Below, piece after piece: positions 18,742-62,604 of a stretch of 64,000 bases of DNA. Within the stretch, counting starts at the first letter, position 1. Every line of letters begins with the position of its first letter. A model generated the notes under the pieces. The model saw only the letters and a list, made by a program, of their open reading frames with translations, searched no databases and was not told the DNA's origin. Both the position numbers and the translations under genes were made by a program. Origin of the DNA: an uncultured Gammaproteobacteria bacterium (GTDB taxonomy: Bacteria > Patescibacteriota > Microgenomatia > UBA10105 > UBA927); contig CAYUKU010000002.1 of the NCBI GenBank assembly GCA_964445435.1, positions 47,988-111,987 of the forward strand. Direction: 5' to 3'.

Positions 18742-18886
18742 GTGAACGAATTTGTAAAGACACGCTCAACTGATGGCTCTTTTGCCCTTATACGTTTCCC
18801 CGTTTTTCGCTAAGTGCGCGTTTGCACATAAGAGGAATTCCTCACATGAACCGAGCAAACGCGCAGTTGTCTTCAAAATTGTTCAC
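18742..18886. repeat. Copy 1 of a ~145-bp structured intergenic repeat element (imperfect terminal inverted repeats plus an internal 10-bp stem)
   Basis: gtgaacgaatttgtaaagaca...tgtcttcaaaattgttcac. Internal gcgcgtttgc / gcaaacgcgc stem. Lies between the minus-strand genes 17289-18722 and 18907-19947. Confidence 0.5.
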
Positions 18887-19989: not shown

Positions 19990-20133
19990 GCACACGAATT
20001 TGCAAAGACACGCTCACCAGATGGTTCTCTCGATTAAATAAGTAACCCCATCGTTCGCTACGTGAGCGTTCGCATATACAGTCATATTGACGAATGAAGA
20101 GCGAACGCTCAGTTGTCTTTGCACACTGTGCGC
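19990..20133. repeat. Copy 2 of the same ~145-bp structured intergenic repeat element
   Basis: gcacacgaatttgcaaagaca...tgtctttgcacactgtgcgc. Internal gagcgttcgc / gcgaacgctc stem carrying two compensatory base-pair changes relative to copy 1. Confidence 0.5.
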
Positions 20134-41622: not shown

Positions 41623-43101
41623 GGTCAGCTGTTCAACCGGCGCGTGGTCATCCGTGAGAATAGATGCTCTCTCAAGCGGTCCCGTATATCGGTTTGAGAG
41701 ATAGGCGCCCAGTTCTCTGTCATCGGTTGACCAGTCCGGACGAACAGTCGATTTGAGCGCCACCAGAATGACGTTCTGAATCTTTTCCGGTTGATCAGGG
41801 AATGAAACGGGAAAGACATACACCTGGGGGAATACGCGGGCAAGCGTTTCCGCCTCTGCCGCAAGAAACCTGCTGTGTGGACCGGTGACAGACGAGATGA
41901 TATTTATAAGGACGCTACCGTCATAATTCAGCCGGTCATAGGCTGCCCGCGCCATTTCGATGGTCGTCAGATGAAATGGGATGGTGTACTGGGGATCAAA
42001 CGCGTCGATAAATATGACGTCATACCGCGAGGTGTTTGATGTGAGGAAAAGGCGGGCGTCTTCATCTATGATTCTAAGTGTCGGGTAGTCGTTAAGACGA
42101 AAATAGGTATTGGCGATATCGGTAAGCTCTGAATCTATCTCTACGACGTCAATCTGCTTGTCGGGGTTTCTGCGCACAAAATCCTTGGGAAATGAATATC
42201 CGCCGCCGCCGATCATAAGCGTGCGGTTTGCCGCCGGGGTGAAATATAAAGCAAGGCGGAAAAATTTGAGGTACGTTGCCACAAGATCATCATCGCGGTC
42301 CAGAAACATGCTTGACTGTGATCCGTACGGACTTGAGCGCAGGTACCGGGTCGGCCGTCCTGAAAGCCTGTCTGTCGAATCCACAATCCAGTAACGGCCA
42401 TACACTGTGTCCCAGTCGCCGACACTTCCCGGCCAGGAAAGGATGGATGTGCCTTGGGTGAGAGTGAGTGCGAAGGCGGCAGTCAGAAACAACGCGAGCA
42501 TCTGAAAGAAGTTGCTTTTTTCCCACGGAATCCAAAACGCTGCAAGTGCACTAAGCGTGCCTGAGAGAAGAAGGAGAGTTCTGGCATTCCCAAAGGCAGA
42601 AATGAGGTAAAATCCCGAGAGGAATGTCCCTACAATACTCCCGATGGTTGAAATAGCATAAATGCGGGCTACCGTTCTACCTGCGTGGGTAAGCGTTTTC
42701 ATCGCCCGGCCGGTGCAGTAGGGGAGAATTGTCCCCAAGGCCACCGTTGTCGGCCCGAAGAGAATAAGGGTCGCCAATATAGACCGCAGCCTCAAATCAG
42801 GCACGGAAAAAAGTGCCGCAAGAACCTGATGGGTGATAGCCACCGTCAAGCCGAGAAACAGGCCAGCCGCAAGAAGGAGCCACCCGAGGACGTTGGCTCT
42901 TGCCCCATCGGCGAGCCTGCCGCCTATGATATAGCCCAGCGAGAGCATGGCCATAATGCAGCCGATGATGCCTGTCCAGGCCACGAGGGAGGTGCCTATC
43001 GCAGGAGCAAGAACGCGGCTGGCAGTCAGCTCCAGGATCATAACCACCGCGCCGCTTATGCCTGCAGTGATCTCAAGTTTCAACGCGGGCGAGACCTTCA
43101 T
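41602..43101 (-). CDS. Membrane-anchored spermidine-synthase-like aminopropyltransferase (polytopic N-terminus fused to an SpeE-like domain)
   Basis: Start MKVSPALKL (ATG at 43099-43101), about 7 TM helices. The C-terminal domain has LMIGGGGYS...VDVVEIDSEL...DVIFIDAFDP, the SpeE Rossmann and substrate motifs. Confidence 0.8.
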   Translation of the reverse strand: MKVSPALKLEITAGISGAVVMILELTASRVLAPAIGTSLVAWTGIIGCIMAMLSLGYIIGGRLADGARANVLGWLLLAAGLFLGLTVAITHQVLAALFSVPDLRLRSILATLILFGPTTVALGTILPYCTGRAMKTLTHAGRTVARIYAISTIGSIVGTFLSGFYLISAFGNARTLLLLSGTLSALAAFWIPWEKSNFFQMLALFLTAAFALTLTQGTSILSWPGSVGDWDTVYGRYWIVDSTDRLSGRPTRYLRSSPYGSQSSMFLDRDDDLVATYLKFFRLALYFTPAANRTLMIGGGGYSFPKDFVRRNPDKQIDVVEIDSELTDIANTYFRLNDYPTLRIIDEDARLFLTSNTSRYDVIFIDAFDPQYTIPFHLTTIEMARAAYDRLNYDGSVLINIISSVTGPHSRFLAAEAETLARVFPQVYVFPVSFPDQPEKIQNVILVALKSTVRPDWSTDDRELGAYLSNRYTGPLERASILTDDHAPVEQLTSNFYGR

Positions 43102-43156
43102 ACGCGTATCATAGCACGGAGAAAGCGCGTTCTGAGGCGAAATAAGCCTATAGCAT

Positions 43157-43186
43157 TTGACTTTGGCGTGTATGTTAGCGTACAAT
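43157..43186 (+). promoter_or_regulatory. Sigma70-like promoter (TTGACT, 18 bp, TACAAT)
   Basis: TTGACT at 43157-43162 and TACAAT at 43181-43186 with an 18-nt spacer. A G-rich start follows about 7 nt downstream. Confidence 0.4.
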
Positions 43187-43192
43187 GGGCTG

Positions 43193-43276
43193 GTCGTTTT
43201 AGCACATTAACTTGTTGCACGACAGGCGCAGTGCCCACGCGCAAAGGTCCCCCGTGAAGCACGGGGGTTTCTTTTG
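43193..43276 (+). ncRNA. Candidate ~84-nt small RNA or terminated leader transcript
   Basis: It is delimited by the promoter above and an intrinsic terminator (8-bp GC-rich stem CCCCCGTG/CACGGGGG with an AAG loop, followed by TTTCTTTTG). No ORF lies between them. The next plus-strand start codon is about 200 nt further downstream. Confidence 0.3.
43249..43276 (+). terminator. Rho-independent terminator hairpin followed by a U-tract
   Basis: cccccgtg-aag-cacggggg followed by tttcttttg. Confidence 0.5.
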
Positions 43277-43470
43277 CCGTGACGGCATGTGTGCCTATCG
43301 GTTATTACGAAGAACAGATATCGGTGAGTGGCTTCGAGTTTCTTTTCGGAGACTGGGAGCCACTCATCGTGAGGGTGGTCATCACACGTAAGGAGCAATG
43401 GGGGAAAGGAATTGAATCGGTTAAGAGTAACAACAAGCGGGACAAACGTCCCGGGAAGGAAGAAGACACA

Positions 43471-44502
43471 ATGGCTACAACAACCAAGAAAAGCCACCCG
43501 AATGCGCTGTTTATCGTCCAACGGTTCGCGCTGTTTGCTGTCGCGGTGTTAGCGGTCGGTTCAATCTTTCTGGCTACCGTGCAGGCACAGGTTCCCAACC
43601 TCCCGCCCGCCGGTCCGGTGAGTGAGACCACGGCAACGCCCAGCGCGACGCCAACCGAGACGGTGACGCCAACGTTCACACCAACCGTCACGCGCACGCC
43701 CGCGCCCACGCTCATCCCGTGTCCGCCCGTAGGACAGCCGACCAGCTTTGGAGAAATCCAGGTGGTCTTCCATGAGGCTGTCCCCTCAAAGGCTTGCCAC
43801 TACGTCTTGCTCTATGCCGAGCTGACGAGCGACGAGTTTGCCGAGATGGGAATTGCGACCGGACCGGTTGAAATCGCCGTTTTCGCGACGGTCGATGCCA
43901 TCACGGAGTACGTCTACGAGACAGCCCGTCTCGCAGGCTGCAATCCTGATGACAAAGAGATCATCCGGTCTCAATGGATTCGCGGAGGCGCAATGGTCAC
44001 CAAGGGTGCCGTGTTCCTGCGTGAGGGCAAAGTTGAAGCGTCATTTGACATCGCGAGCCACATCGCGGGCGAAGTCACTCAGGCGACCATGATCAACATT
44101 CTTGGCTCTTGCCAGCTCAAGTGGCAGGTGCCGGATTGGTACGCGCATGGATTGTCGGAGTACCACATGGAGGTCTTCACCAACGAGTGGGGATTGAAAC
44201 CCTGGGAGGAGGATCTCTATAAGTGTCGCTATCGCCTTGAGCAGCTCAAGCCAGGAGAAGAATGTATCTATATGGAGGCTCAGATGGCTTTCCATCTCCT
44301 GAGAGAGTTGTCAGGCGCTGATCGCGGCATGGACGTGATTATTCAAATGAGCAAAGGAAAAAGTTTCAACACGGCGTTTTACGACGTGTACGGCTTATCC
44401 GTTTCGGACTTTTCCAATGCTTTTGATGAATACCGCGCCCACGGGTACAGACTGGCGCCTACGTCCACACCATCGACGCCACCGTCGGGAGACGGAGGTT
44501 AA
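43471..44502 (+). CDS. Secreted or anchored hypothetical protein with a Thr/Pro-rich linker
   Basis: ATG at 43471 preceded by GGAAGG. N-terminal hydrophobic anchor, a TPTxT-rich segment, then a ~250-aa globular domain with several Cys. Confidence 0.6.
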   Translation: MATTTKKSHPNALFIVQRFALFAVAVLAVGSIFLATVQAQVPNLPPAGPVSETTATPSATPTETVTPTFTPTVTRTPAPTLIPCPPVGQPTSFGEIQVVFHEAVPSKACHYVLLYAELTSDEFAEMGIATGPVEIAVFATVDAITEYVYETARLAGCNPDDKEIIRSQWIRGGAMVTKGAVFLREGKVEASFDIASHIAGEVTQATMINILGSCQLKWQVPDWYAHGLSEYHMEVFTNEWGLKPWEEDLYKCRYRLEQLKPGEECIYMEAQMAFHLLRELSGADRGMDVIIQMSKGKSFNTAFYDVYGLSVSDFSNAFDEYRAHGYRLAPTSTPSTPPSGDGG

Positions 44503-44598: not shown

Positions 44599-45153
44599 AT
44601 GGACGTGCAACAGTCTCAAGCGATACCATCCACTCCCGTTCAACCCGTGGCTGCCCAGCCGACCTCGGTTTCTGTTCAGGCACAGCCTCTGAATCCCTCC
44701 CAACCTGTCCAACCGACAACTACCGTTCAGCCTCCGAAGCGCAAAAAGGGTCCGTGGTGGATCTTCGTTCTGGCAATTTTCATCCTCGCGGGAGTCGGAG
44801 GGTATTTCTTATTGCCAAGTAGCAGTATCGTCATCCCGAGTCAGCCTGCCGGAAGTACATCGATCCATGTGACGAAGCTCGATCTTGCCAAGCCGGGGTG
44901 GCTTCTTATTTCCCGCGTGTCTGTCACCGAAGGAGTTGAGGAAATTGCTGTATCTGCGTACCTTGAGCCGGAGGAGTATACGGAATTTGACCTACCCCTC
45001 ATGGATGACTCAGAACCGCTCCAAACTGGATATTTCCTCTACGGGACGCTGTATGAAGATACCGACGGAGGCGAGTATTTCGATAGCAAAGTGGATCAGC
45101 CGATGAAGGATTGGCTCGGCCGGAAGATTCGGACGACATTCCGCGTACTGTGA
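44599..45153 (+). CDS. Small membrane-anchored protein, member of a 4-copy local paralog family
   Basis: Pro/Gln-rich N-terminus, one TM helix (WWIFVLAIFILAGVGGYFLL) and a ~100-aa C-terminal domain. That domain is homologous to the C-termini of 45907-46323 and 47598-48008 (shared D.P..D.FGRkI...F.v ending). Confidence 0.6.
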   Translation: MDVQQSQAIPSTPVQPVAAQPTSVSVQAQPLNPSQPVQPTTTVQPPKRKKGPWWIFVLAIFILAGVGGYFLLPSSSIVIPSQPAGSTSIHVTKLDLAKPGWLLISRVSVTEGVEEIAVSAYLEPEEYTEFDLPLMDDSEPLQTGYFLYGTLYEDTDGGEYFDSKVDQPMKDWLGRKIRTTFRVL

Positions 45154-50037: not shown

Positions 50038-51177
50038 TTACGACTTCCAGATGTTGTGGACAAGGACGCCCTCAACGAAATAGTTGTGTTCTGCTCCAGG
50101 GAGGCTCAGGTTGTAAACCGGCGGATTTTCGTCGACCGCGACTACAGATTCTACTGTCACTGCGTTTCCGTCCGGTCCCAGAAGCGTATCGCCCGCTCTA
50201 ACTGCGTCTGCACGAAGCCACAGGCCGCGGTTTGCGACCCAGAGGTTATGGCCTTTCGTGACTCTCAGTGTACCGTTAATAACCAAGTATCCTGCTTCCT
50301 GCGACTCAGGATCTGCAGATGGACTCGGGTGGGCAAGAAGTGCTGTCACTGTGTTGGGAACCAATTTGCCCGTAGAAAGATTGTAGGATAAAACGACGTC
50401 TCCCGGACGGATATCCTGAATTTCCTTCATCGTGCCGTCGGCCATGAGCACCCTAGAACCGGCGAGGAAGCATCCGCCGTAGCTGCCATATGATGCCTGG
50501 CCGTAGCCGTAATAGCCAGCCTGACCGTAACCGTAGCTGTATGAGTAGTAGGCGCTTTGCGCGTAGCCGTAATATGCAGCCTGACCGTAGGCGTAGCTAT
50601 ACGCATAATAATTGCTTTGGCTGTAGGTGTAATAATTGGCCTGACCGTAGGCGTAGTATGTGGACTGAGCGTAGGAGTAGCAGTTGTTGGTCAGTGTTCC
50701 ATCACTCGGATCACAATCAGCCGTCGTTGTTTTCATGAGTCCCATGCGTCGGTAGCCGGATGCAGTGGATGAGCGTCGTGGGTAGTTCGTATCGTCCGTC
50801 CAGTCGTTGACCCAGCCGTCTGCGTCGTTATCATAGATCCAAATGCCGCCGCCGGGGAGAAGCTGTCCGCTTCCGATGGCGATTCCGCCGGAACCGTTGA
50901 TGATAAATTGTCCAGCGACGATCTTCTGACCGGACGAAAGTGTCAGATTATAATTACCTAGCGTGATGGAGCCGGTGTTTGACGTACCCGTTTCAGAGTT
51001 TTGCGGATTATCGACACCATCCACGGTATAGGCAAACGTGCATGATGCGGTAAGCGTGATATTACCATATGTCGTTGTCGGGCGGGCACAGTCAGCCAAA
51101 ACACGCTCCTGTGGCATAAGCACGAAAAGGAAAAGAAGAGCGAGAAACGAGCCGATCGTTGAGAGACCTTTTTTCAT
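50038..51177 (-). CDS. Secreted protein with a Tyr/Gly/Gln-rich repeat tract and a C-terminal Hint (Hedgehog/intein-like, BIL-type) domain
   Basis: Start MKKGLSTIGSFLALLFLFVL (ATG at 51175-51177). Hint block A CFLAGSRVLMADGTMKEIQDIRPGDVV, block B TKGH (TxxH), and a C-terminal ...VEGVLVHN followed by only IWKS. A Tyr-rich low-complexity region lies upstream of the Hint domain. Confidence 0.8.
   Translation of the reverse strand: MKKGLSTIGSFLALLFLFVLMPQERVLADCARPTTTYGNITLTASCTFAYTVDGVDNPQNSETGTSNTGSITLGNYNLTLSSGQKIVAGQFIINGSGGIAIGSGQLLPGGGIWIYDNDADGWVNDWTDDTNYPRRSSTASGYRRMGLMKTTTADCDPSDGTLTNNCYSYAQSTYYAYGQANYYTYSQSNYYAYSYAYGQAAYYGYAQSAYYSYSYGYGQAGYYGYGQASYGSYGGCFLAGSRVLMADGTMKEIQDIRPGDVVLSYNLSTGKLVPNTVTALLAHPSPSADPESQEAGYLVINGTLRVTKGHNLWVANRGLWLRADAVRAGDTLLGPDGNAVTVESVVAVDENPPVYNLSLPGAEHNYFVEGVLVHNIWKS
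50470..50700. repeat. Tandem ~45-nt degenerate direct repeats that encode the Tyr-rich tract (YAYGQA-YY-Y-QS)n
   Basis: Recurring gcctgaccgta(g/a)(g/c)cgtag(c/t)t and gtagccgtaata blocks are visible on the plus strand. Confidence 0.5.
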
Positions 51178-51178
51178 A

Positions 51179-51709
51179 TTATCTGAACGCGAATCCCCCG
51201 TTATATGTGGCGTCCTGCCCGACGAGCGTAAAGTCAAGGTAATACGTCTCCTCATGGGTGTCATCCGCAGTCAGGGTTGCCTGCCAGGTTCCATTCGTAT
51301 CCGTTCCCGCCGTGCGGGTGAAGGTAAGCGGTGTTTTTTTCGTATCGGTATCGAGCCTTGCTGTTACGGAGGTTATGGGAGTAGTGTAGGTTGCCTTAAC
51401 CGTAATGGTTTGTTTGGCTCCGACTTTCACATCCAAAGGATCGAGTGCGAATTCATAGATTTTCGGTCCCACTGCCTTGGGTCCGGGGGCGAAGGTAAAC
51501 GTTTCCTTCCCAGGATTGAGCTTGCGGGGTTTCGGTTTCGGAGTAGGGGTGCCTGATGCCATGGCGATTTCTTTTTCCTCTTTCGGCGTCCCCATGAACC
51601 AATTAGTTCCCTTCTGGGAGACGATATACCATCCGAGCAAAACGACGACAACGATTCCGACAAGGAGAGCAGTATTAGAAGATTGCTTCGTGGACTTGGA
51701 CTTTTTCAC
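51179..51709 (-). CDS. Membrane-anchored hypothetical protein (beta-sandwich-like), co-transcribed upstream of the Hint protein
   Basis: GTG start, TM helix ALLVGIVVVVLLGWYIV, a Pro/Lys-rich linker and a Thr-rich beta-strand domain. Its stop lies 1 nt before the Hint gene start. Confidence 0.55.
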   Translation of the reverse strand: MKKSKSTKQSSNTALLVGIVVVVLLGWYIVSQKGTNWFMGTPKEEKEIAMASGTPTPKPKPRKLNPGKETFTFAPGPKAVGPKIYEFALDPLDVKVGAKQTITVKATYTTPITSVTARLDTDTKKTPLTFTRTAGTDTNGTWQATLTADDTHEETYYLDFTLVGQDATYNGGFAFR

Positions 51710-51841: not shown

Positions 51842-53032
51842 ATGAAGTGGAAACGAATGTATTCCGTAGCACTCGTTATTTCTCTCCTGCTTATCGGTAT
51901 TGCAAGGTACGCTCTTTTTCCTCGTGATTCCTATCCCGAAGTGCGGGAGCTTGCCGGAAAATCCCTCGATTTCGGAGAGCTAAGCGTTTTTTTCACCCGT
52001 CTTGCACAGGCGAAGGGCGCTTCATACGCATTTGAGGTTCTCCGTATTGCGACACTCCCGCCCAATACGGACATGCATCTTCTGGGGCACGTGGTGGGCG
52101 ATGAGCTCTATAAACAGCAGGGGATAAACGGCATGAGCGCCTGTACGCAGGATTTCCGCAACGCGTGCTCCCATTCCATCGTTGTCGGATATTTTCTTGC
52201 AAAGGGTGAAGAGGGGTTAGGAGATATTGCCAACGCCTGCAGACGCGCGCCGGGAGGCGCAGGCGCCTACACGATGTGTTTCCACGGTCTTGGTCACGGG
52301 ATACTGGCGGCGGTAGACTATGACCTGCCGCGGGCCGTGTCTCTTTGCCAAAAGACCGGGACGATTCAATACGGATACCGTGAGTCGTCCGAATGCACGA
52401 GCGGTACCGTCATGGAAATTATCTCCGGCGGGTTTCATAACAAGACGCTCTGGGAGAAACAGTCCGCGAAATATCTATCCCTAAGCGAGCCGCTTCTGCC
52501 GTGCACTGCCAGTTACGTGCCAGCAGGATCCAAGCCCCAATGTTTCGAGTATTTGACGCCGCATCTGGTGAAGGCGGCAGGCGGATCGCTGGATGACGGC
52601 GTGCCGGCAGATGAAATCCTTAAAAAGGCATTTGCATATTGCGAACTGCTCGATATCGATATCCAGCGCGCATTCTGCTACCAGGGATTCGGCAAGGAGT
52701 TCATCGTTCTGGTTCATAATCGCGATACGCGGACGCTCGCCAACATGGATGAACGGGAAATGAAAGAAACGTTTCGCCTGTGCGCGCTTGCGGGGCGTGC
52801 GCAGGGGGAGCGGGAGTGTCTGCTTCATGCGATGGATTCGCTTTTCTGGGGAGGAGAGAATGACCCGACAGGCGCAGTCCGGTTTTGCGCGCTTATGGAA
52901 TCAGAGACGCTTGCCAAGGCATGTTACGAGCATCTTGTGGGGGCGACCAGATTTTTCCTGAAAGATCCTCACGCCCGCGATCCCGTGTGTAAGATAATCC
53001 CAGGTGCGTACCAAAGAGACTGTTATGAATAG
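51842..53032 (+). CDS. Cys/His-rich repeat protein family, member 3
   Basis: Signal anchor MKWKRMYSVALVISLLLIG. Motifs HLLGHVVG, CTQDFRNACSHS, CFHGLGHG, CTSGTVME, CFEYL. Confidence 0.75.
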   Translation: MKWKRMYSVALVISLLLIGIARYALFPRDSYPEVRELAGKSLDFGELSVFFTRLAQAKGASYAFEVLRIATLPPNTDMHLLGHVVGDELYKQQGINGMSACTQDFRNACSHSIVVGYFLAKGEEGLGDIANACRRAPGGAGAYTMCFHGLGHGILAAVDYDLPRAVSLCQKTGTIQYGYRESSECTSGTVMEIISGGFHNKTLWEKQSAKYLSLSEPLLPCTASYVPAGSKPQCFEYLTPHLVKAAGGSLDDGVPADEILKKAFAYCELLDIDIQRAFCYQGFGKEFIVLVHNRDTRTLANMDEREMKETFRLCALAGRAQGERECLLHAMDSLFWGGENDPTGAVRFCALMESETLAKACYEHLVGATRFFLKDPHARDPVCKIIPGAYQRDCYE

Positions 53033-54503
53033 AAAAGCCTTCATAAGTATAGTCATGGCAGTGTTGGTTTCGGCGGCGTGGGTGTTTTTGTTCAAGGGTA
53101 TGGTGATGGGCGCAAGACGCGTCATCGAATTGAGGAAAAACGGATATTACCCCAAGAGTCTCACGATTCGGGTCGGGGAGACCGTGACGTTTGTCTCGCA
53201 GACCGGAAAACCGTTCTGGCCCGCCTCAAACGTGCACCCGAGCCATGGATTGTACCCCCAATTCGATCCGCTCAAACCCGTTTCTCCCGATACGCCCTGG
53301 CAGTTTACCTTCGACCGGCCGGGCAAGTGGCGGTTCCATGACCATATTGCGCCTGAGTTTACGGGGACGATTTTCGTTCTGCCCCAGGGGAAAACGACAA
53401 TTGATGCGCTTCCGTGTCAGGAGAAAAATATTGACCTTACCGTCAAGGAGCAGTGCTGGGAGGATGAGCTTGGCGATGCGCTGGAAACGAAAGGGATAAA
53501 AGCGGCCTTCACTGAATTCGTCCGTCTGTATCAGACAGATGCGGATTTCGTAACCACGGGATGTCACGTCCACGCGCACAGAATAGGCGACAAATTTTAT
53601 GAGACCTACGCGTCGGGGTTACAAACGCTTGCCGGTATCGAGCTTCCGCCTGAGACGATGTCGTGCGGGTACGGATTTTTCCATGGATTGTTTGAACACT
53701 TCTTCCGAAAACACCCCAATATCGCGCTTGCCCGGTCCGTTTGCGAAGATTTGGATAAACGCTACAGCAAAACGATCCCTCTTATCCGCATCAACTGTTT
53801 CCATGGAGCCGGTCATGGATTGATCGCCGATCCGCCCGACCCTGCATCATGGGGCAAGCCGCAGGATCTCGTGGGGAAGCCATTGTCGCTGTGTGAGAGC
53901 ATATCTCCTGTTGAGTCTGAAGCATACGCCTGTATGGACGGCGTATTTAACGTCGTTTCAAGCTGGATGGGAGATGCGAAGTACGGTATGTCCATCGACA
54001 TGAAAAATCCGTTTTGGCTTTGCAAGACGCTCAAGTCCACGCAGCAGGAGTCCTGCTATTATGAGCAGATTATGGTGATGAGCGAGTTTGATAACCGCAA
54101 CATGACGACGATTACGAACAAATACATCACACCCATCGTCAACAAGGATATAGCCAATCGGGTGATGTTTTCTCTGGCCGCCTCCCTCATGCAGAAGGAC
54201 GTTGTCCTGCCGGATCAGACGCACATGATCCGTGCATGCCGCAGTGTGCCAGGGTATCTACAAAAGAGTTGCCTGGAGGGAGTGGTCAACGGATTTAAGG
54301 GTCACGGTGAACCGGGGAAAGAATACGTGAAAATGCTTGCGTTTTGCCAGAATTCGCTTCTCACCCGCGTCGAGCGTGATACGTGTTACCTCTCGCTTAT
54401 TGATGCGATATGGGATTTGAATCCACAGCAGGAAGCGCTTGGGGTCTGCCAAAAGATACCGGATCAGTATAGAGCGCAGTGCGAGCAATGGGAGAAACGG
54501 TGA
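53004..54503 (+). CDS. Cys/His-rich repeat protein family, member 4, with an N-terminal cupredoxin-like domain
   Basis: TM helix followed by LTIRVGETVTFVSQTGKPFWPASNVHPSH...WQFTFDRPGKWRFHDHIAPEFTGTIFV, an amicyanin/plastocyanin-like strand pattern in which the ligand Cys is replaced by Asp. The family repeats follow: CHVHAHRIG, CGYGFFHG, CFHGAGHG. Confidence 0.75.
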   Translation: MRTKETVMNRKAFISIVMAVLVSAAWVFLFKGMVMGARRVIELRKNGYYPKSLTIRVGETVTFVSQTGKPFWPASNVHPSHGLYPQFDPLKPVSPDTPWQFTFDRPGKWRFHDHIAPEFTGTIFVLPQGKTTIDALPCQEKNIDLTVKEQCWEDELGDALETKGIKAAFTEFVRLYQTDADFVTTGCHVHAHRIGDKFYETYASGLQTLAGIELPPETMSCGYGFFHGLFEHFFRKHPNIALARSVCEDLDKRYSKTIPLIRINCFHGAGHGLIADPPDPASWGKPQDLVGKPLSLCESISPVESEAYACMDGVFNVVSSWMGDAKYGMSIDMKNPFWLCKTLKSTQQESCYYEQIMVMSEFDNRNMTTITNKYITPIVNKDIANRVMFSLAASLMQKDVVLPDQTHMIRACRSVPGYLQKSCLEGVVNGFKGHGEPGKEYVKMLAFCQNSLLTRVERDTCYLSLIDAIWDLNPQQEALGVCQKIPDQYRAQCEQWEKR

Positions 54504-55675
54504 TTATGGAAAAAAACGTGTTTCCGTTTAAGACAATCAGCATTTTCATTATCGGGGTTATCGTTCTTGTGGAAGTCGGACTGATCGTCTCTGAAAGGCT
54601 TGCGAAATCACCCTGCGCGGGGAAAGAAGGAACGGAGCTGAAAAACTGCTGGGAGACTGTTGTAACCGGTCACCTCAAAAAAGGAGACATATCCGGGGCA
54701 TTCGAGTCGCTTGCAACTCTTTATGAAACGACGCCGGCTTTGGGTGAAACATGCCATAGTCTGACCCATGAAATCGGACGGTCGGCGTATGAACTTTTCT
54801 CACGCGGGGTCGAATTTGATATTACCGCCAAAACTGCATACTGTTCTTACGGCTTCTACCATGGGTTCATGGAGGAGCTTGTCATACGACGTGCGGACAT
54901 GAAGCTTGCGCGGGAGTTTTGCGCGTACGTCGACAAGCAACTGGCAAACGTAAGTCCTGACGTGACGCTTCAGTGTTATCACGGTATCGGGCACGGGACG
55001 GTCAATAATCACGATCCGCGAACATGGGGGGAGCCGCAGCGTCTCATCGATCCCGCGTTGGCTCTGTGTGAACAGGTGGCAACCAATCAGGAGGAGCTCT
55101 CCCGGTGTGCGACCGGTGTGTACAACGGGTTGTCTATTTTTTATGCAACAGGGGAGTATGGACTTCTCCTCGATACGAAGGATCCGGTGGGTGTGTGCAG
55201 GCGGCAGAAGGTAGAGTATCAGGATGCCTGTTATGTGAGCATGAATACGCTTCTTTTACAGGTTGCCAATTATGATCTACGCAAAGCAGTCTCGTATATC
55301 GAGAACATACCGGATGACGCCATCGCCCAGCATACGATGATAAATCTCGCGTCCCCCATAGGGACGAGAAATCTGGGTACATTGGATCACAGCGAGACCA
55401 TCGGAGTCTGCAGGGCACTGCCAAGCCGCCTGAAACTGGCGTGCATCCAGGGGTATGCGTTCGGGTTTCTCGAACATGGGGAACCGGAGAAAGAATACAG
55501 AAAACCTCTCGCATTCTGCGGATCCCAACAGCTTGTCAAAGAAGAGCAAAAAGCATGTTTTGAGTATATTTTGTCGTATCTGCCAAGATGGTACGCCAAA
55601 GAGAAAGTTTCGGGGATTTGCCAAACGGTTTCATCAGAGTGGCGTGATTATTGTGAAAAACAAATACAAAATTAG
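54479..55675 (+). CDS. Cys/His-rich repeat protein family, member 5
   Basis: Motifs CHSLTHEIG, CSYGFYHGF, CYHGIGHG, CATGVYNG. Confidence 0.75.
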   Translation: MRAMGETVIMEKNVFPFKTISIFIIGVIVLVEVGLIVSERLAKSPCAGKEGTELKNCWETVVTGHLKKGDISGAFESLATLYETTPALGETCHSLTHEIGRSAYELFSRGVEFDITAKTAYCSYGFYHGFMEELVIRRADMKLAREFCAYVDKQLANVSPDVTLQCYHGIGHGTVNNHDPRTWGEPQRLIDPALALCEQVATNQEELSRCATGVYNGLSIFYATGEYGLLLDTKDPVGVCRRQKVEYQDACYVSMNTLLLQVANYDLRKAVSYIENIPDDAIAQHTMINLASPIGTRNLGTLDHSETIGVCRALPSRLKLACIQGYAFGFLEHGEPEKEYRKPLAFCGSQQLVKEEQKACFEYILSYLPRWYAKEKVSGICQTVSSEWRDYCEKQIQN

Positions 55676-57062
55676 CGGGATCGTCGGTATAATTCTGTTT
55701 CTTTTGGGAATCGGGGGATTAAGCATCCGACATGCGTATACCAAAACCATTACGCTTGATGATACCGGGTTCCATCCGAAAGTCGCTCTCGTTGTCAGGG
55801 GTGAAAGCATCACATTTCGAACTTCGCGGGGGAAATACTTCTGGCCAGCGAGCGACCCGCATCCGATTCATGCGACATATCCTGAATTTGACCCAAAAGA
55901 GGCCCTGAAAAAAGACGCCGTATGGACGTTTACATTCGACCGTGTCGGGATATGGAGCTATCATGACCACTTGGCTCCGCAGTTTGGCGGACGGATTATC
56001 AGTCTGGGATGGGACGCCAGGGAGTTCGCGCAACTGGTGCAGTCGGCCCGGAAAAAAATCTCCGGTTTCATCCCGCTGACTGTCACAGAGATGGAGGCGT
56101 ATTTCGGACAGTGCGGGGGACTCAATAAGGATTGCTGGGATCCCGTCTTTACTTCCATCGTAGAAACCAAAGGAACCAAACAAGCCCTGGAGACGGTTTC
56201 ATACTTGAGACAGAAATATCCGGAGTTTGCCAATTACTGCCATCAGTATACTGACTTCATCGGTGAGATATCGTATTGGAATATCCTCCCCAAAAAGCGA
56301 CTCCCGCAGTTTAACGCTGCTCTTGCAGGTCAATGCAGCAGCGGGTATATGCACGGATATATGGGTGAATTTGTTTCGCACGGGAGCATCGGACAGGGGA
56401 TTGCGTTTTGTGATGCGTTATTCAGACTCGCCCCTGACCACGAAGTGACTGCCGAGTGTTATCGCGGGGTCGGAAACGGCCTTGCCTTCCGGTTCGGACT
56501 CACGTCATGGAACGACGAGGATGCGATTATCAACGAGGCGCTTGGGGTGTGTGAATCGGTACGGGAGAAAAAACTTTGCGAACAGGGAGTCATCATCGGT
56601 CTTGATCATATGTACTTCGGCGTGCACGGGTTTCAATTGCGGATGGATCCCAAAGACCCGTTTGCAGTATGCCGTCGGGTAAAAACGGAACTTACTGATG
56701 ATTGTTACGAGCAGTTGTCCGACGGATTTTTCGCGTTTGTGGAATCTGATTTGGATAAAGCGATGCCGTATGTAAAAAAACTTCCACCCAAACAGGCAGC
56801 AATCGTCATCGCAAAGATCATACAAATTCCGTATGAACTTGAGTCGTTTGGCGCGAATGGATACGCGAGGATTGTCGCATGGTGTCGCAGCGTGCCGTAT
56901 GGTCTTGGCCAGACGTGTTTACGAGGGTTTATCGGAAAATTGAAAACAATCGATGTGGATTATAATGGGCATACGACAATAGCAGAGAATTTTTGCCGCA
57001 TGCCGATACTTACCGCGGAAGAAGAGTGGTTTTGCCGTAGGGTCGTCTATGAACAAATATAA
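55644..57062 (+). CDS. Cys/His-rich repeat protein family, member 6, with an N-terminal cupredoxin-like domain
   Basis: Probable GTG start at 55644 or 55653, overlapping the upstream stop. Cupredoxin-like segment ITFRTSRGKYFWPASDPHPIH...WTFTFDRVGIWSYHDHLAPQFGGRII. Family repeats follow: CHQYTDFIG, CSSGYMHGY, CYRGVGNG. Confidence 0.7.
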   Translation: MIIVKNKYKISGIVGIILFLLGIGGLSIRHAYTKTITLDDTGFHPKVALVVRGESITFRTSRGKYFWPASDPHPIHATYPEFDPKEALKKDAVWTFTFDRVGIWSYHDHLAPQFGGRIISLGWDAREFAQLVQSARKKISGFIPLTVTEMEAYFGQCGGLNKDCWDPVFTSIVETKGTKQALETVSYLRQKYPEFANYCHQYTDFIGEISYWNILPKKRLPQFNAALAGQCSSGYMHGYMGEFVSHGSIGQGIAFCDALFRLAPDHEVTAECYRGVGNGLAFRFGLTSWNDEDAIINEALGVCESVREKKLCEQGVIIGLDHMYFGVHGFQLRMDPKDPFAVCRRVKTELTDDCYEQLSDGFFAFVESDLDKAMPYVKKLPPKQAAIVIAKIIQIPYELESFGANGYARIVAWCRSVPYGLGQTCLRGFIGKLKTIDVDYNGHTTIAENFCRMPILTAEEEWFCRRVVYEQI

Positions 57063-58254
57063 TTCGTATCGCAGCATTTTCTGGTGGCTTGTTTTTGCCA
57101 TAGGCATTGCGCTTGCCGTTCTCTATCGGATGAATTGGTACGTGCCTACGCCCGGAAGATCTCCGACAGGGGAGGCTGAGAACGTACTGGAGCAGTGCAA
57201 AGGAGCGCAATATCGCCCTGCCTGTTACGAAGCAGAGATTCCGAAGCTCATGGCATATATGTCTATGGAGGATGCGTTCGCCGTAACAAAACTGGTGAGC
57301 GACAAGGATCCGCAGTTTGCCAACTGTCATGTGGTGGCACACAAATTGACCAGTCTTGAGACGCGGAAAGACCCGTCGCGCTGGAAAGATGTGCTTCTTC
57401 GGTGCCCTTCTTCCGTGTGTAATTACGGATGTCTCCATGGGTCAATGATTGAGCGGTTCCGAAGTGAAACGCTTACCGATGAGCAAGTGGAGAAAGTGTT
57501 GCCCGATATAATGGATTTGTGTGAGCCACGGGAGGGCTTCGTTCCATCAGCAATCGACAAAACCATGTGTTATCACGGCATCGGGCATCTTGCTATGTAT
57601 ATGACCGGCGGCGATCCGGCGCGCGCTATACCCGTGTGCGAGAAAACAGCGGTGCGCAGTGATGGGGCAAACTATCTTTCAACATGCATTGAAGGCGTAT
57701 TTATGACGGTATTTCAGAGCGTGGATTCTGAGGATTTTGCACTTGTGCGGTGGATACGGCCGGAGAAAGGGGACGTGCGGAGTTTCTGCTCCCGATACGG
57801 GCAATATTGGCAAATGTGCCGTCGCGAGTCGTTTCCGCTTTTTGACGATGAGTCGATGAAAAAGGCCAGCGGACTTGAGAAATTCTGTTCCTATGCCACG
57901 ACCCCGCAGGATATGAGAAGCTGTTATTGGGGCGGGATCAATGTCATCAGCACCCGGTTTTTCGAGTTGGGCGGCGGCATTTCTGATGTCGATTCGTACT
58001 GCAAAGGTTTTAGGGTTGAGACACAGGGATTATGCTATGGAGGTGTCGCAATGCGCCTTGTCCAGATAGATCCGATAAGAAATGTACAAATTGCAGACAC
58101 CATTTGTGCTCTGGCAAGAGATGCTGCCCGATTGGAGTGTTACAACAACTTGTTGTATTACGCGACGTTTAGCTTCAACACAGGAAGCCAGGAGTTTCGG
58201 ACGTATTGTGCACAGTTATCGGGTGACTGGAAAGAAGCATGCCTAAACCAATGA
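57049..58254 (+). CDS. Cys/His-rich repeat protein family, member 7
   Basis: Motifs CHVVAHKL, CNYGCLHG, CYHGIGHL, CIEGVFM. It overlaps the previous gene by 14 nt. Confidence 0.75.
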   Translation: MNKYNSYRSIFWWLVFAIGIALAVLYRMNWYVPTPGRSPTGEAENVLEQCKGAQYRPACYEAEIPKLMAYMSMEDAFAVTKLVSDKDPQFANCHVVAHKLTSLETRKDPSRWKDVLLRCPSSVCNYGCLHGSMIERFRSETLTDEQVEKVLPDIMDLCEPREGFVPSAIDKTMCYHGIGHLAMYMTGGDPARAIPVCEKTAVRSDGANYLSTCIEGVFMTVFQSVDSEDFALVRWIRPEKGDVRSFCSRYGQYWQMCRRESFPLFDDESMKKASGLEKFCSYATTPQDMRSCYWGGINVISTRFFELGGGISDVDSYCKGFRVETQGLCYGGVAMRLVQIDPIRNVQIADTICALARDAARLECYNNLLYYATFSFNTGSQEFRTYCAQLSGDWKEACLNQ

Positions 58255-59432
58255 AATCAACAAAAATATTCGTTACGCTCGGCTTGTTTGGCGTGGTTGC
58301 CGTCGGACTTGGGATATTTTTTTTCGTTTCGAAGGAAAAGGCGCCGAGCCCATCGCAGCTTTCGTCGTGGGGGAAAAAGTGCGAGGGTACATCTGATACC
58401 GGAAAGGTGGCGTGCTGGGAGGATCTGACACGGGAGGTCGTCAAAAAAGAGGGAATTGCCCCAGCGTTTGATCTTATTTCCTATTTATATGAGAAGAATC
58501 CTGAGTTTGCCGAACCATGTCATGCGATGGTTCATATCATCGGTCAGGTGGCCTACAGTCAGTTTCGCGCAACCGGGAATGTCGATTTATCCGAGAAAAA
58601 CGCGTTTTGTGCATTCGGGTTCTACCACGGGTTTATGGAAATGCTTGTCGCCAGAAAAGGAACAATTGCCGAGGCCCGGGAGTTTTGCCGGTACGTCGAT
58701 ACCAAACTGGGGGATATAACGCCGGGGGCGAAGTTGGGCTGTTACCATGGGATCGGGCACGGATCGACAGATATCCACAATCCGCAATATTTCGGCAATG
58801 AACGCGCAGTCATTGCGCCTGCGCTTGCCAACTGCGAGGCGTTTGCGACGGATGATGAGATGCGCAAGCTCTGCGTGACGGGGATATTTGACTCAGTCGC
58901 GCTTGCGTACTACAACAACGGGGAAAACGGATTCGTTATGAAAAAAGATGACCCGCTCTGGCTTTGCCGTGAACAGCCCGAGAGGTACAAGGAGTCGTGC
59001 TACTTGGATATGATGCCTGCGATGATCTGGCTGGGAGACCATGACCTGACCCGAGCGGGGCCGATGGTACTGGCGCATGCAGAGCGCAGCTATCGAAAGA
59101 TTGCGCTTCGGGCGCTTGCCGAAAACAGCGTGCGGTTTGTCATCCACAAAAGGCCGGTCGAAGACTATCTGCCTTATTGCAGATCGCTTGAGGCAGGGGA
59201 GAGTCTGGCCTGTGTCAGCGGTCTAGGGGTGGGGATTATGCAGTTTGGGCGGCCGGGTGAGGAATATAAAGATGCCATTGCGTTTTGTGTGTCGGATAGG
59301 CTTAATACTAATGAGCAGGACAGCTGTATGAAAGATGTACTTCAGTACGTCAGTCAGCGCTATGACCGAAAGAAATCCGCATCCATTTGTCGTACGGTTG
59401 ATGCACAATTTGAGGGATATTGCCGTGAATAG
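58239..59432 (+). CDS. Cys/His-rich repeat protein family, member 8
   Basis: Motifs CHAMVHIIG, CAFGFYHGF, CYHGIGHG, CVTGIFD. Confidence 0.75.
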   Translation: MPKPMKSTKIFVTLGLFGVVAVGLGIFFFVSKEKAPSPSQLSSWGKKCEGTSDTGKVACWEDLTREVVKKEGIAPAFDLISYLYEKNPEFAEPCHAMVHIIGQVAYSQFRATGNVDLSEKNAFCAFGFYHGFMEMLVARKGTIAEAREFCRYVDTKLGDITPGAKLGCYHGIGHGSTDIHNPQYFGNERAVIAPALANCEAFATDDEMRKLCVTGIFDSVALAYYNNGENGFVMKKDDPLWLCREQPERYKESCYLDMMPAMIWLGDHDLTRAGPMVLAHAERSYRKIALRALAENSVRFVIHKRPVEDYLPYCRSLEAGESLACVSGLGVGIMQFGRPGEEYKDAIAFCVSDRLNTNEQDSCMKDVLQYVSQRYDRKKSASICRTVDAQFEGYCRE

Positions 59433-60615
59433 GACGAAACTTTTGGTCGGAATTATTCTCGTTATCCTTTTGGAGATAGGAGTCCTTTTCGTGCGCAGTC
59501 TGGGCGGTTTTATGAGGCCGCAACAGGTCGCTTCCGCGGTATCGCGTGTTCTTGCCGCGTGCGACAAGGAGGAATATCACCCTGCCTGTTATGATCGGGA
59601 AATCCCAAAACTCATGGACCGTTTCTCCATGGAAGAAACGTTTGCCATTACCAAAGAGATCCAACTGAAAGATCCGACCTATACCTATTGTCATGTATTG
59701 GGTCACGCGCTTTCCTCGCAAGAGACGAAGAAGGATTCATCCAAATGGCAGGATGTGATAACCCGTTGCCCGAGCGGCGTATGTTCAAACGGGTGTGTCC
59801 ATGGGGCATTCCAGGAGCGGTTCAGAACCGACGTGTTATCCCAAGAGCAGATTGCCGAGATCAAGCCGCAGCTTCTCACCGTATGCAAGCCGCGCGGATT
59901 GTGGAATCCGACCGGCATGGAGCAGGCAACCTGTTACCACGCGATGGGACATCTTCTTATGTATATAACGGGTGCAGAGATAAACCAGTCGCTTGCGCTG
60001 TGCGATGAGCTTGCGAAACCCAAAGAGGAAAACGGGTATGATTTCCACCCTATCTGCTACGACGGCGTTTTCATGCAGATGTTTCAGCCGCTTGAGCCGG
60101 AAGATATTGCACTGGTACAGGGCAAACAACCGACGCGAGCGACGGTCCGTACCTTTTGCGACCGGTTTTCCGGGCAGGCAAAAGTATCCTGCGTGACGGA
60201 ATCCTGGCCGCTTTTCATTGCCGAACTTGAGAATCCAGAGTTTCTCACGTCCTTCTGCGGTCAACTTGCGCCGGATATGAGACACAGGTGTTTTACGGGC
60301 ATGTTTTATATCCTCGTCGTGCAGAATCGCTTCGATCTCACAAGAATGCGCAATTATTGTGATCAATTACCGGAAAATACAGCAGCATTATGCTATGCAA
60401 GCACTGCATCACGGCTTGTAGAGACAGATTGGAACAACATCACGAAGGCGGCTAACTGGTGCACCGAAACCGGGAGCGAGTCGGGAAAAAAGGCGTGTTT
60501 CGAGGAGCTTGTTTACTACGCTTCATATAACTTCCACAGAAAATCGTCTGAATTTTTTGCCTTATGTAACGCGCTTCCCGACCCATGGAAGCAGTCTTGT
60601 CTCGATGGTGAGTAA
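59401..60615 (+). CDS. Cys/His-rich repeat protein family, member 9
   Basis: Motifs CHVLGHAL, CSNGCVHG, CYHAMGHL. The start (ATG 59401 or GTG 59425) overlaps the previous stop. Confidence 0.7.
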   Translation: MHNLRDIAVNRTKLLVGIILVILLEIGVLFVRSLGGFMRPQQVASAVSRVLAACDKEEYHPACYDREIPKLMDRFSMEETFAITKEIQLKDPTYTYCHVLGHALSSQETKKDSSKWQDVITRCPSGVCSNGCVHGAFQERFRTDVLSQEQIAEIKPQLLTVCKPRGLWNPTGMEQATCYHAMGHLLMYITGAEINQSLALCDELAKPKEENGYDFHPICYDGVFMQMFQPLEPEDIALVQGKQPTRATVRTFCDRFSGQAKVSCVTESWPLFIAELENPEFLTSFCGQLAPDMRHRCFTGMFYILVVQNRFDLTRMRNYCDQLPENTAALCYASTASRLVETDWNNITKAANWCTETGSESGKKACFEELVYYASYNFHRKSSEFFALCNALPDPWKQSCLDGE

Positions 60616-61597
60616 GCCAATGCCTATGAAAACATCTTTACGAAAAATTCTTCTTTTAGGCGCGGCGGTGATCATTGTGGCCGCTATCATGACCCGTATG
60701 AGCAGTAAGCCAGAACCCCTGGAGACCGATCCGCACAAGGCAGTGACGCAACTGTCGGGAATCATGAAAAAGCAAGGGATTCTCGCAGCGCAGAAGTTTT
60801 TCCTGTCAAATTTCTTTTCCTATTCGGATAATAACCGGCATTATCTGGGGCATTTCATCGGGGAGCATATCTATAAGTCGTTCGGGCTTGCGGGTCTCAA
60901 AAACTGCTATTCCCATATAGAATTTGGGTGTATCCACGGTTTTCTCTTAAGCGGGTATCTCAAAGAGGGGAAACAGTTTCTCTGGGATGTCGTGGAGGAG
61001 TGTAAGAAGGATCTGCCCGAAGGGTGTATGCACGGACTGGGGCACGCGTTTCTTCTCACGCGCGGATACGATGTGCCAAGTTTGCGCTCCAGCCTGTCTG
61101 ATTGCAGCAGTCTGGATGTGCCGGAAGGCATGAAAGAGCAGTGCATCCAGGGGGTGTATATGGAATATAATGACCGGTTTCTCATCGACGGATCATCGTC
61201 TGTCAATTCCTTCGTCCCGCGCGATTTCAACCCCAAAAAACCTCTCGCCCCATGTGATACGGAACCGATCGACCTGCAACCGATCTGCTACCGCGAACTG
61301 GTACTGTATTGGGCAAACGTTTCCGGAATAACGAGAGGTCAGATGACCGACTACTGTCGCAGCATACCCAATCCGAAAGGGAAGTACGAATGTTTCTGGA
61401 GTTTCGGCGGGTATGTGGCGGGAGACGACAGCATCGTGGAGCCCTCAGTTGCCGTATGTCAGGAGCTTGCCGCAGACAATCTCAGTCCGTGTGTTCGCGG
61501 CGCGCTTATGTCGGCTGCGTTCCAGAGCCAGAAATCCAGGCAGGCATTTTGCAGTCAGATCCCGCAATCCCTACAAAAGGAGTGTGAGACATGGTAA
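60605..61597 (+). CDS. Cys/His-rich repeat protein family, member 10
   Basis: Motifs YLGHFIG, CYSHIEFGCIHG, CMHGLGHA. It overlaps the previous gene by 11 nt. Confidence 0.7.
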   Translation: MVSKPMPMKTSLRKILLLGAAVIIVAAIMTRMSSKPEPLETDPHKAVTQLSGIMKKQGILAAQKFFLSNFFSYSDNNRHYLGHFIGEHIYKSFGLAGLKNCYSHIEFGCIHGFLLSGYLKEGKQFLWDVVEECKKDLPEGCMHGLGHAFLLTRGYDVPSLRSSLSDCSSLDVPEGMKEQCIQGVYMEYNDRFLIDGSSSVNSFVPRDFNPKKPLAPCDTEPIDLQPICYRELVLYWANVSGITRGQMTDYCRSIPNPKGKYECFWSFGGYVAGDDSIVEPSVAVCQELAADNLSPCVRGALMSAAFQSQKSRQAFCSQIPQSLQKECETW

Positions 61598-62604
61598 AGC
61601 ATGCGCATTTGGGAGCGCTCGTCATCGTTGGCTTGGTCGCCGCAGTTTGGCTCGCGGCCCCGCAGGTTGACCGACTCAAGGCGTCACTTGTGAGTACGCC
61701 GTTTCAGCTGAGTCTTGCGCGAAAAGAAATAGACGCCTCCATAAAAATTCATGGAGCCCAAAAAACGTATGACCGGATAAAGGAGATCTTACAAGAGAAA
61801 GACAGCATACGGCAGCATACCGTGGCTCATATATTTGGGGAACTTCTGTACCGCGAAAATGGGCTGAGCGGGATCACCGTGTGTGATAGCAGTTTCGGCT
61901 TCGGCTGTTACCATAGCTTCTTCGGGAAAGCGGTAAGCGAGGGAGGGGAGGGGATCGTCCCTGAGCTTGACCGTCTGTGCGTCGCGTCATTTGGCGTTAT
62001 GGGATTGGGCTGCGCCCACGGCATCGGACACGGGCTTGGTGAATACTTCGGCCCGTCCCGGGTGGACGAACAGCTTCGCCTGTGTGAGGGGCTTTCATGG
62101 AAAGGGAAGTATATGGGGTGCCAAAGCGGTGTATTTATGGAATACAACACACCGGTTTCCACTGACGGTGAAACGGCAATGAGCAAGCCCAGACCCTGGG
62201 ATGAGCGCGCTCCCTATGGGAGTTGCTTGAGCGTTGCTGAAAAATTCCGCCCTTCGTGTTTCCTGGAAATTGCCGGTTGGTGGGAGCAGGTTATCCCACG
62301 CCAATACCCGAAGATGGGGGATTTGTGCGCGAGGCTCAGAAGCGTATCTGATCGGGAGAGTTGTTTTCTGGGGATTGGGTACAATGTCGTGCAGTCCCAT
62401 GAGTACGATACCGCGAGCGTAAAGGAAATTTGCGCAACGTTTCCTTCAGATGGCGAGCTTTTGTGCCGGGCCGGCGCATCATGGAGCTTCTTTGCGAATC
62501 CGGATTACCGCCAAGCCGCGTCCGAGTTTTGCCGCATGGATACCCAGGAGAAAACAGCGTTGTGTCAAAAGAAATCCGATTTACTCGGAAACGGATCGTT
62601 ATGA
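61591..62604 (+). CDS. Cys/His-rich repeat protein family, member 11
   Basis: ATGGTAA overlap with the upstream gene. Motifs HTVAHIFG, CDSSFGFGCYHSF, CAHGIGHG. Confidence 0.75.
   Translation: MVKHAHLGALVIVGLVAAVWLAAPQVDRLKASLVSTPFQLSLARKEIDASIKIHGAQKTYDRIKEILQEKDSIRQHTVAHIFGELLYRENGLSGITVCDSSFGFGCYHSFFGKAVSEGGEGIVPELDRLCVASFGVMGLGCAHGIGHGLGEYFGPSRVDEQLRLCEGLSWKGKYMGCQSGVFMEYNTPVSTDGETAMSKPRPWDERAPYGSCLSVAEKFRPSCFLEIAGWWEQVIPRQYPKMGDLCARLRSVSDRESCFLGIGYNVVQSHEYDTASVKEICATFPSDGELLCRAGASWSFFANPDYRQAASEFCRMDTQEKTALCQKKSDLLGNGSL

Follow-up and report, generated by a model that had tools for sequence, protein, structure and literature searches.

What is transcribed from a promoter that is followed almost at once by a terminator? 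This question is raised by positions 43157-43276 of a 64,000-nucleotide (nt) stretch of contig CAYUKU010000002.1, referred to here as the window, where a promoter and an intrinsic terminator lie together in the gap between two genes. A sequence-only reading of this DNA had named two candidates, an independent small RNA (sRNA) and a leader with internal termination. The leader is favoured here and the independent sRNA less so, based on the two motifs and their conservation, covarying helices after the terminator, linkage to a single downstream gene, and the lack of a second promoter-like site. With moderate confidence, 43157-43186 is taken as the promoter of an operon with a Peptidase_MA-like gene and a DUF7282 gene, and 43193-43470 as a structured 5' leader of ~278 nt with a promoter-proximal intrinsic terminator, in which the fraction of polymerases reading through would set the expression of the operon. 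Features are on the plus strand unless stated otherwise.

The promoter is of the sigma-70 type, with a -35 hexamer TTGACT (43157-43162), an 18-nt spacer and a -10 hexamer TACAAT (43181-43186), and it matches 10 of the 12 consensus positions, as the sequence-only reading had described. On its own, such a match does not exceed chance; sites that fit 9-10 of the 12 positions occur in the window at or below shuffle frequency. The hairpin with a U-tract that had been placed ~60 nt after the promoter is likewise present, at 43249-43275. It has an 8-bp stem (CCCCCGTG/CACGGGGG, 7 of the 8 pairs being G-C) with the loop AAG at 43249-43267, followed by TTTCTTTT at 43268-43275, and the predicted hairpin energy is -14.5 kcal/mol. 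This is the strongest terminator-like site in the window, where such sites are generally near chance (29 vs 21, 28 vs 22 and 20 vs 19, observed vs shuffled). Apart from it, the only plausible terminator at the end of a gene in the window is at 62637-62661, after an open reading frame (ORF) ending at 62604. On the minus strand the element at 43249 would have a poor T-tail, e.g. ACCTTTGC.

A protein search with the downstream gene identified 19 relatives among 5.8 billion proteins, and four further lineages have the element in an upstream gap of the same size (~360-370 bp). These are represented by L001, L005, L007 and L009, with protein identities of 84%, 62%, 50% and 47%; the leaders of L002, L006 and L008 are identical to those of L001, L005 and L007, respectively. 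Identity to the window at the four-fold sites of the adjacent gene is 70% for L001, 51% for L005, 27% for L007 and 32% for L009, and the last two can be considered saturated because of these low values. Over the initial ~35 nt of the predicted transcript, identity to the window is 81-100%, and in the terminator it is 85-100%. The -35 and -10 hexamers are retained in the lineages scanned (L005, L007 and L009) as TTGACT or TTGACG and TACAAT, with a spacer of 17-18 nt whose sequence drifts. The terminator stem is 7-8 bp in all lineages scanned, 7 of its 8 pairs are invariant in the five lineages, and the U-rich tail 3' of it reads UUUCUUUU (as in the window), AUUUUUUU or AUUUUUUUU. Conservation in related genomes had been proposed as a check on the feature, and it was found: four other lineages retain the promoter and the terminator despite variation in the spacer and in the initial 6 nt, which places the feature beyond chance. 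Judged from these alignments, both motifs are genuine and under strong conservation.

The transcription start is predicted at 43193 (+/-1 nt) from the onset of conservation. TACAAT and an invariant GTCG are separated by exactly 6 variable nt in every lineage, so conservation begins where the +1 position is expected, 7 nt after the -10 hexamer. With this start the terminated RNA would be 79-83 nt long across the lineages (~83 nt in the window), and an RNA of ~80 nt is the expected, presumably abundant, main product. Directly 5' of the -35 hexamer is a further invariant block, CCTATAGCA (43147-43155), which is identical in 5 of 5 lineages and is the sole occurrence in the window when up to 3 mismatches are allowed. 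It is also present in L007, which has no divergent gene. A role as a UP-like element next to the promoter, or as a site for an activator, is conceivable.

The promoter had been called an orphan, and this was not borne out. The element lies directly upstream of the same gene in every locus that bears it, a scan of the window, L005, L007 and L009 found no further promoter-like site from the terminator to the ATG at 43471, and the ~195 nt between the terminator and this ATG contain covarying plus-strand helices that reach up to the Shine-Dalgarno region. Because of these three properties the promoter is assigned to the downstream gene. In each of the four scanned lineages the gap contains a single promoter-like site and a single terminator on the plus strand. 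The locus arrangement in L007 and L008 is informative, since the spermidine-synthase-like gene that is the upstream neighbor in the window has moved downstream, and a same-strand PMT_2 gene is the upstream neighbor instead. The gap and its content are unchanged, which argues that the element travels with the peptidase-like gene. A covariance model of the leader (R1), run on 180 kb of sequence, found the orthologous leaders only and no extra copy. Homologues of the downstream protein at ≤48% identity, which follow a cupin gene after ~20 nt or have other surroundings, have no leader and no covariance-model match. Upstream of the 77% identical copy in L003/L004 the sequence is unrelated and lacks an early terminator, and again the covariance model finds no match there.

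The element has been met in a small group of uncultured bacteria. A 23-nt pattern made from the block at 43202-43228 has one match in 185,579 species genomes, on the L009 contig CAZKLT010000004.1. A 21-nt version of the pattern has no match in the metagenome DNA collection, and a protein-based metagenome scan retrieved two distant loci, both without the leader. A repeat or mobile element, such as a repetitive extragenic palindrome (REP) or a miniature inverted-repeat transposable element (MITE), was considered and rejected, as the element is not repeated in the window, has no extra copy and shows no similarity to phages or plasmids. CAZKLT010000004.1 is deposited as 'uncultured Gammaproteobacteria bacterium', a label that is unconfirmed; no rRNA or other marker gene is found in the window or the related loci.

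The linkage to one gene also bears on the other candidate of the sequence-only reading, an independent gene for a trans-acting sRNA of ~80 nt. This explanation requires a further, unrecognised promoter for the downstream gene, whose separate 5' untranslated region (UTR) would then be the conserved 195 nt. The unit does have its own near-consensus promoter and the strongest terminator of the window, its predicted length of 79-83 nt is conserved, and the invariance of its first ~35 nt and of the terminator goes beyond the needs of a simple attenuator. No antiterminator was found, so termination would be the default, and fragments terminated within a 5' UTR are known to act as sponges of sRNAs in E. 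coli (ChiZ, IspZ; PMC7815308). However, the element is single-copy and never found apart from the peptidase-like gene, even where the upstream neighbor has changed, and no promoter-like site follows the terminator in the four scanned lineages. A duplex scan of the 96 initiation regions in the 64 kb gave a best target of -50.4 against a shuffled background of -49.8 +/- 3.7; the top targets are ORFs that overlap the element itself, or lie within the shuffle range. The sequences flanking the terminator are also complementary to each other across it, which matters only if a read-through RNA exists. An independent sRNA gene is therefore considered unlikely, though it is a serious alternative.

The leader contains four helices, which were obtained with RNAalifold and hand inspection: P1, a long imperfect hairpin tipped by the terminator, P3 and P4. 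The region folds much more stably than shuffles do (z = -3.4 over the 86-nt unit, and z = -5.6 when 289 nt are folded). A pair count on the five sequences gave 13 double-changed pairs. Shuffles gave 5.3 +/- 1.6, none of 500 having as many as 13, and slid controls had 1-4. The support is unevenly distributed along the leader, with covariation in the helices downstream of the terminator and strict invariance in P1 and nearly all of the terminator stem.

P1 (43193-43223) is the 5' hairpin, with a closing helix GUCG/CGAC and an inner helix GCACA/UG-UGC. All 9 of its pairs are invariant, so that covariation is evidence neither for nor against it. It overlaps a 27-nt block, GCACATTAACTTGTTGCACGACAGGCG (43202-43228), which is invariant bar two positions (R and W). 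A small hairpin at 43231-43242 has one double change, which is not above shuffles.

The long imperfect hairpin spans 43220-43300, with the terminator at its center. In its lower stem, AGGCGCA (43224-43230) pairs with UGUGCCU (43290-43296), a pairing that would form in read-through RNA only. The base of the hairpin (AGGCGCA/UGYGCCU) is conserved, with G-U to G-C changes, and its 3' part is formed by an invariant block, GCCTATCGGT (43293-43302). The long hairpin as a whole has three double changes. Mismatches are present in the lower stem of L007 and L009, but a hairpin of 81-83 nt (-34 to -52 kcal/mol) is retained in all lineages despite a divergent middle.

P3 (43322-43369) has 14 + 6 bp, 9 of these 20 pairs being changed on both sides. 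It has many G-U pairs, and the plus strand folds better in three of the four lineages tested (-29 to -35 kcal/mol). P4 (43438-43453, CGGGAC-AAAC-GUCCCG) has 6 bp and lies directly 5' of the purine-rich Shine-Dalgarno region GGAAGGAAG (43454-43462), which is unpaired in the folds. In L007, P4 reads CUCCGG/CCGGAG, where 5 of the 6 pairs have changed on both sides and all are Watson-Crick, and L009 has one double change. G-U pairs are frequent, which identifies these as helices of plus-strand RNA. Two conserved blocks lie between P3 and P4. The single-stranded block GAGGGTGGTCATC (43371-43383) has 75-95% identity to the window, compared to 25-50% in the neighboring linker (43303-43321), and the block GGGGGA (43400-43405) has 4 of 6 positions strictly invariant. 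GGGUGG (43373-43378) could pair with CCACUC of the P3 3' arm (43360-43365), no better than in shuffles.

These structures suggest a possible role in RNA processing. An RNase III-type cleavage at the long hairpin and P3 would cut the extended duplex of the read-through RNA and leave a new mRNA 5' end guarded by P3 or P4, whereas the terminated RNA would finish in a short, stable hairpin. Consistent with this, the lower stem can form after read-through only, the 81-83-nt hairpin is kept although its middle diverges, and the 20-bp duplex of P3 shows covariation. The proposal is derived from structure, though, and it leaves the sequence invariance of P1 and the terminator unaccounted for; the lower-stem mismatches in L007 and L009 also do not fit. 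Processing as the main function of the leader is very unlikely.

It is also conceivable that the constraint on the 5' part acts mainly on the DNA, with CCTATAGCA, the +10 to +36 block and GCCTATCGGT as sites for a transcription factor that controls the promoter. The hairpin would then insulate or terminate constitutively. In favor of this, the blocks do not covary but are invariant, and three octamers that, read by eye, resemble GCCT(A/G)T(A/C)G flank the promoter and the transcribed region (43146-43153, 43221-43228 in reverse orientation, and 43293-43300). However, the 5' block is a poor DNA palindrome, and its hairpin needs a bulge, as would be acceptable in an RNA but not in a dimer site with symmetry. 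Variation from G-U to G-C in the AGGCG/YGCCU helix fits RNA pairing, and no regulator gene was found in the window. A constraint acting mainly on the DNA has little probability.

The remaining question is whether termination is under control, and none of the known control devices was recognized. The term 'riboswitch-like' used in the sequence-only reading is not supported: Rfam 15 (4227 models) has no match in the window at the gathering score, at E≤10 over 43050-43550 it gives only microRNA and long non-coding RNA noise on P3, and it has no match at E≤1 on L001, L005, L007 and L009. ARAGORN finds no tRNA or tmRNA. The suggestion of conditional termination similarly lacks support, as there is no antiterminator pairing above shuffled controls and the pre-terminator domain is invariant and so shows no covariation. 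The consensus fold of the nascent RNA leaves the terminator 5' arm unpaired, and the best upstream partner of this arm, CACG-ACA-GG, which is the same invariant segment in all lineages, is at shuffle level (fraction ≤ observed 0.29-0.89 in dinucleotide shuffles of the five lineages). A leader peptide is rejected, since the ORFs that start in the invariant block end after 14-65 aa in different frames and have no upstream Shine-Dalgarno sequence. The boxA antitermination signal has the consensus GYTCTTTAANA (PMC5725501), and the leader reads GCACATTAACT in the window and GCACATTAACA in L005, matching 8-9 of 11 positions with mismatches at positions 3 and 5; this candidate was also rejected, with the proviso that the consensus of the host lineage may differ. 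Matches to boxA with ≤3 mismatches are rarer than chance in the window (568 vs 673 +/- 29). Pfam and NCBIfam scans of ~45 ORFs identified no regulator gene in the 64 kb; the matches are to sugar-modifying enzymes, PMT_2 and GT2 glycosyltransferases, and TPR, LRR and HINT proteins, and many ORFs have no assignment. Since neither an antiterminator, a leader peptide, an Rfam family, boxA nor a regulator was detected, termination is presumably the default.

A new type of riboswitch or ligand-sensing attenuator would fit some of these results, with a domain of ~56 nt (43193-43248), possibly together with the terminator stem, binding a small molecule. In its favor, an invariant structured domain lies immediately 5' of a terminator in a 5' leader, invariant terminator arms are consistent with an aptamer that overlaps the terminator, and there is neither a leader peptide nor a nearby regulator gene. 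Against this are the Rfam results for the element and its orthologues, the lack of a conserved alternative partner for the terminator 5' arm, and the invariance of the putative aptamer, which has no covariation. There is also one copy per genome upstream of one gene, hence no regulon or ligand clue. A ligand-sensing function seems improbable on balance.

In the leader reading that is preferred here, transcription would start at ~43193 and the nascent RNA would fold into the invariant 5' hairpin, after which the terminator would stop most polymerases and free the ~80-nt RNA. Polymerases that read through would make the full leader, and the flanks of the terminator would then zip into the 81-83-nt hairpin. 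P3 and P4 would form next and leave the Shine-Dalgarno sequence open for translation, with operon expression depending on the fraction of polymerases that read through. As there is no RNA-intrinsic antiterminator, read-through may be basal, making the leader a fixed attenuator, or it may be promoted by a trans factor that recognizes the sequence of the invariant 5' domain and the terminator. The contrast between the frozen P1 and terminator arms and the freely covarying P3 and P4 suggests that a protein, a ligand or a trans target recognizes the first ~85 nt by their sequence, although this can only be inferred. A more speculative proposal, which is doubtful at present, is a new class of attenuator, in which the invariant 5' hairpin and the terminator stem are bound by a small molecule or a protein that chooses between a trans-acting RNA of ~80 nt and a read-through mRNA with a terminator-tipped processing hairpin, all without an antiterminator helix.

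Several points weigh against a terminated leader. The transcription start, the termination efficiency and the read-through are all predicted from the sequence, and a promoter without a sigma-70 consensus may lie between the terminator and the ATG. Other canonical terminators are at chance frequency in the window, which bears on how far the host relies on intrinsic termination. A plain attenuator would not usually have two terminator arms of invariant sequence, and because P1 and 7 of the 8 terminator pairs never vary, their structure is unproven and a constraint at the DNA level is possible. The five distinct sequences represent about four independent lineages, and shuffle statistics on related sequences can overstate the support.

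The gap containing the leader runs from the ATG of the divergent gene (43101, minus strand) to the ATG at 43471, and its length of ~369 bp confirms the ~370 bp given earlier between a spermidine-synthase-like gene and a secreted-protein gene. The earlier statement that no ORF lies in between holds only in part. No frame is conserved, but ORFs do overlap the element, for example a 59-aa ORF with a TTG start at 43212-43391. In the public record the gene (P0001, 407 aa) is called from a GTG at 43279, a start that would translate through P3 and the conserved leader blocks. The homologues are 312-346 aa long and the frame of the extension is closed in L001, so that the ATG at 43471 is taken as the true start; the homologue lengths thus agree with the start codon named in the sequence-only reading.

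The gene at 43471-44502 encodes a Peptidase_MA-like protein of 343 aa, Cys-rich and secreted or membrane-anchored. A weak match to PF13485 (Peptidase_MA_2) is on record for its relatives, and the family has a signal or lipoprotein N-terminus, many cysteines and a Pro/Thr linker. The window protein reads GEVTQ where the alignment has HExxH or HExxQ in its relatives, and it may be catalytically inactive. No relative with a solved structure was found. The DUF7282 gene (44599-45153) follows the peptidase-like gene in all leader-bearing loci and is a probable operon partner; no literature on DUF7282 was found.

The divergent spermidine-synthase-like gene has a conserved extended -10 motif, TGYTATGAT, located 5-6 nt before its ATG in the four lineages that have the divergent upstream gene. 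In the window this motif is TGCTATGAT (43116 down to 43108, minus strand), 6 nt before the ATG at 43101, and it is similarly placed in L001, L005 and L009. The mRNA of this gene is probably leaderless, judging by this spacing. With its own conserved extended -10 motif, the divergent gene neither shares nor needs the promoter at 43157.

Some other features of the window were recorded. An 85-nt direct repeat (75% identical) is present at 18746-18830 and 19994-20078, in successive intergenic regions of a minus-strand sugar-modification cluster. The two regions flank a PylC-like ATP-grasp gene and adjoin a PseC-like aminotransferase gene, and the repeat may be a shared regulatory region. Positions 51842-63382 contain about nine same-strand ORFs of ~340-535 aa, with no Pfam match in the seven that were scanned. 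Because six copies of a 21-nt motif (similar to GTGTTATCACGGTATCGGGCA) and further short repeats are shared among them, they may be paralogues arranged in tandem. A minus-strand gene for a PT-HINT/Hint domain protein (50038-51264) contains a 60-nt sequence twice in tandem at 50502-50621, with 77% identity between the copies. At the edge of the window begins an ORF of exceptional size, at least 2682 aa (3-8051).

The analysis assigns a promoter to an operon in a cell-envelope glycosylation neighborhood and corrects the public gene start from the GTG at 43279 to the ATG at 43471. It also delimits a candidate structured cis-regulatory leader, with defined boundaries, four helices and conserved single-stranded blocks. 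The host is an uncultured lineage in which canonical terminators appear to be rare, and the element lends itself to testing whether read-through can depend on a factor or ligand when there is no antiterminator.

Like promoter-proximal attenuators, the element has a strong promoter, a hairpin and U-tract within ~60 nt, an ORF further 3', a conserved structured leader and no other recognizable promoter. Unlike them, it has no detected antiterminator helix, leader peptide, T-box or riboswitch family, or adjacent regulator gene, and the terminator is early, ~195 nt before the ATG and not beside the gene.

A second comparison is with small RNAs that arise from 5' UTRs by premature termination. SreA and SreB of Listeria are RNAs of this kind. 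ChiZ and IspZ of E. coli are also derived from 5' UTRs in this way (PMC7815308). In these systems, as predicted here, one promoter gives both a short terminated RNA and a full-length mRNA, and the length and sequence of the predicted short RNA are conserved. In the described cases the leader has an established cis signal, such as a riboswitch, an sRNA or Rho. For the present element, no trans target was identified within the 64 kb.

The position of the terminator inside a longer hairpin that forms on read-through only resembles the retroregulation of phage lambda by tI/sib. In both, the terminator is at the tip of a longer inverted repeat whose outer stem needs sequence 3' of the U-tract. The present hairpin differs in being at the 5' end of an operon and not at the 3' end, and in its chromosomal envelope-gene context without phage or plasmid similarity; RNase III cleavage is hypothetical here.

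The cis-regulatory 'motif' families of Rfam, orphan structured leaders collected by comparative genomics, are another relevant comparison, since the leader too was recognized from conservation together with covariation, ahead of a single gene family and within a narrow clade. The leader differs from these in that it matches none of the Rfam 15 models and is known from five distinct sequences. It thus matches no described RNA family, yet it belongs to a familiar kind, the structured 5' leader with an internal terminator.

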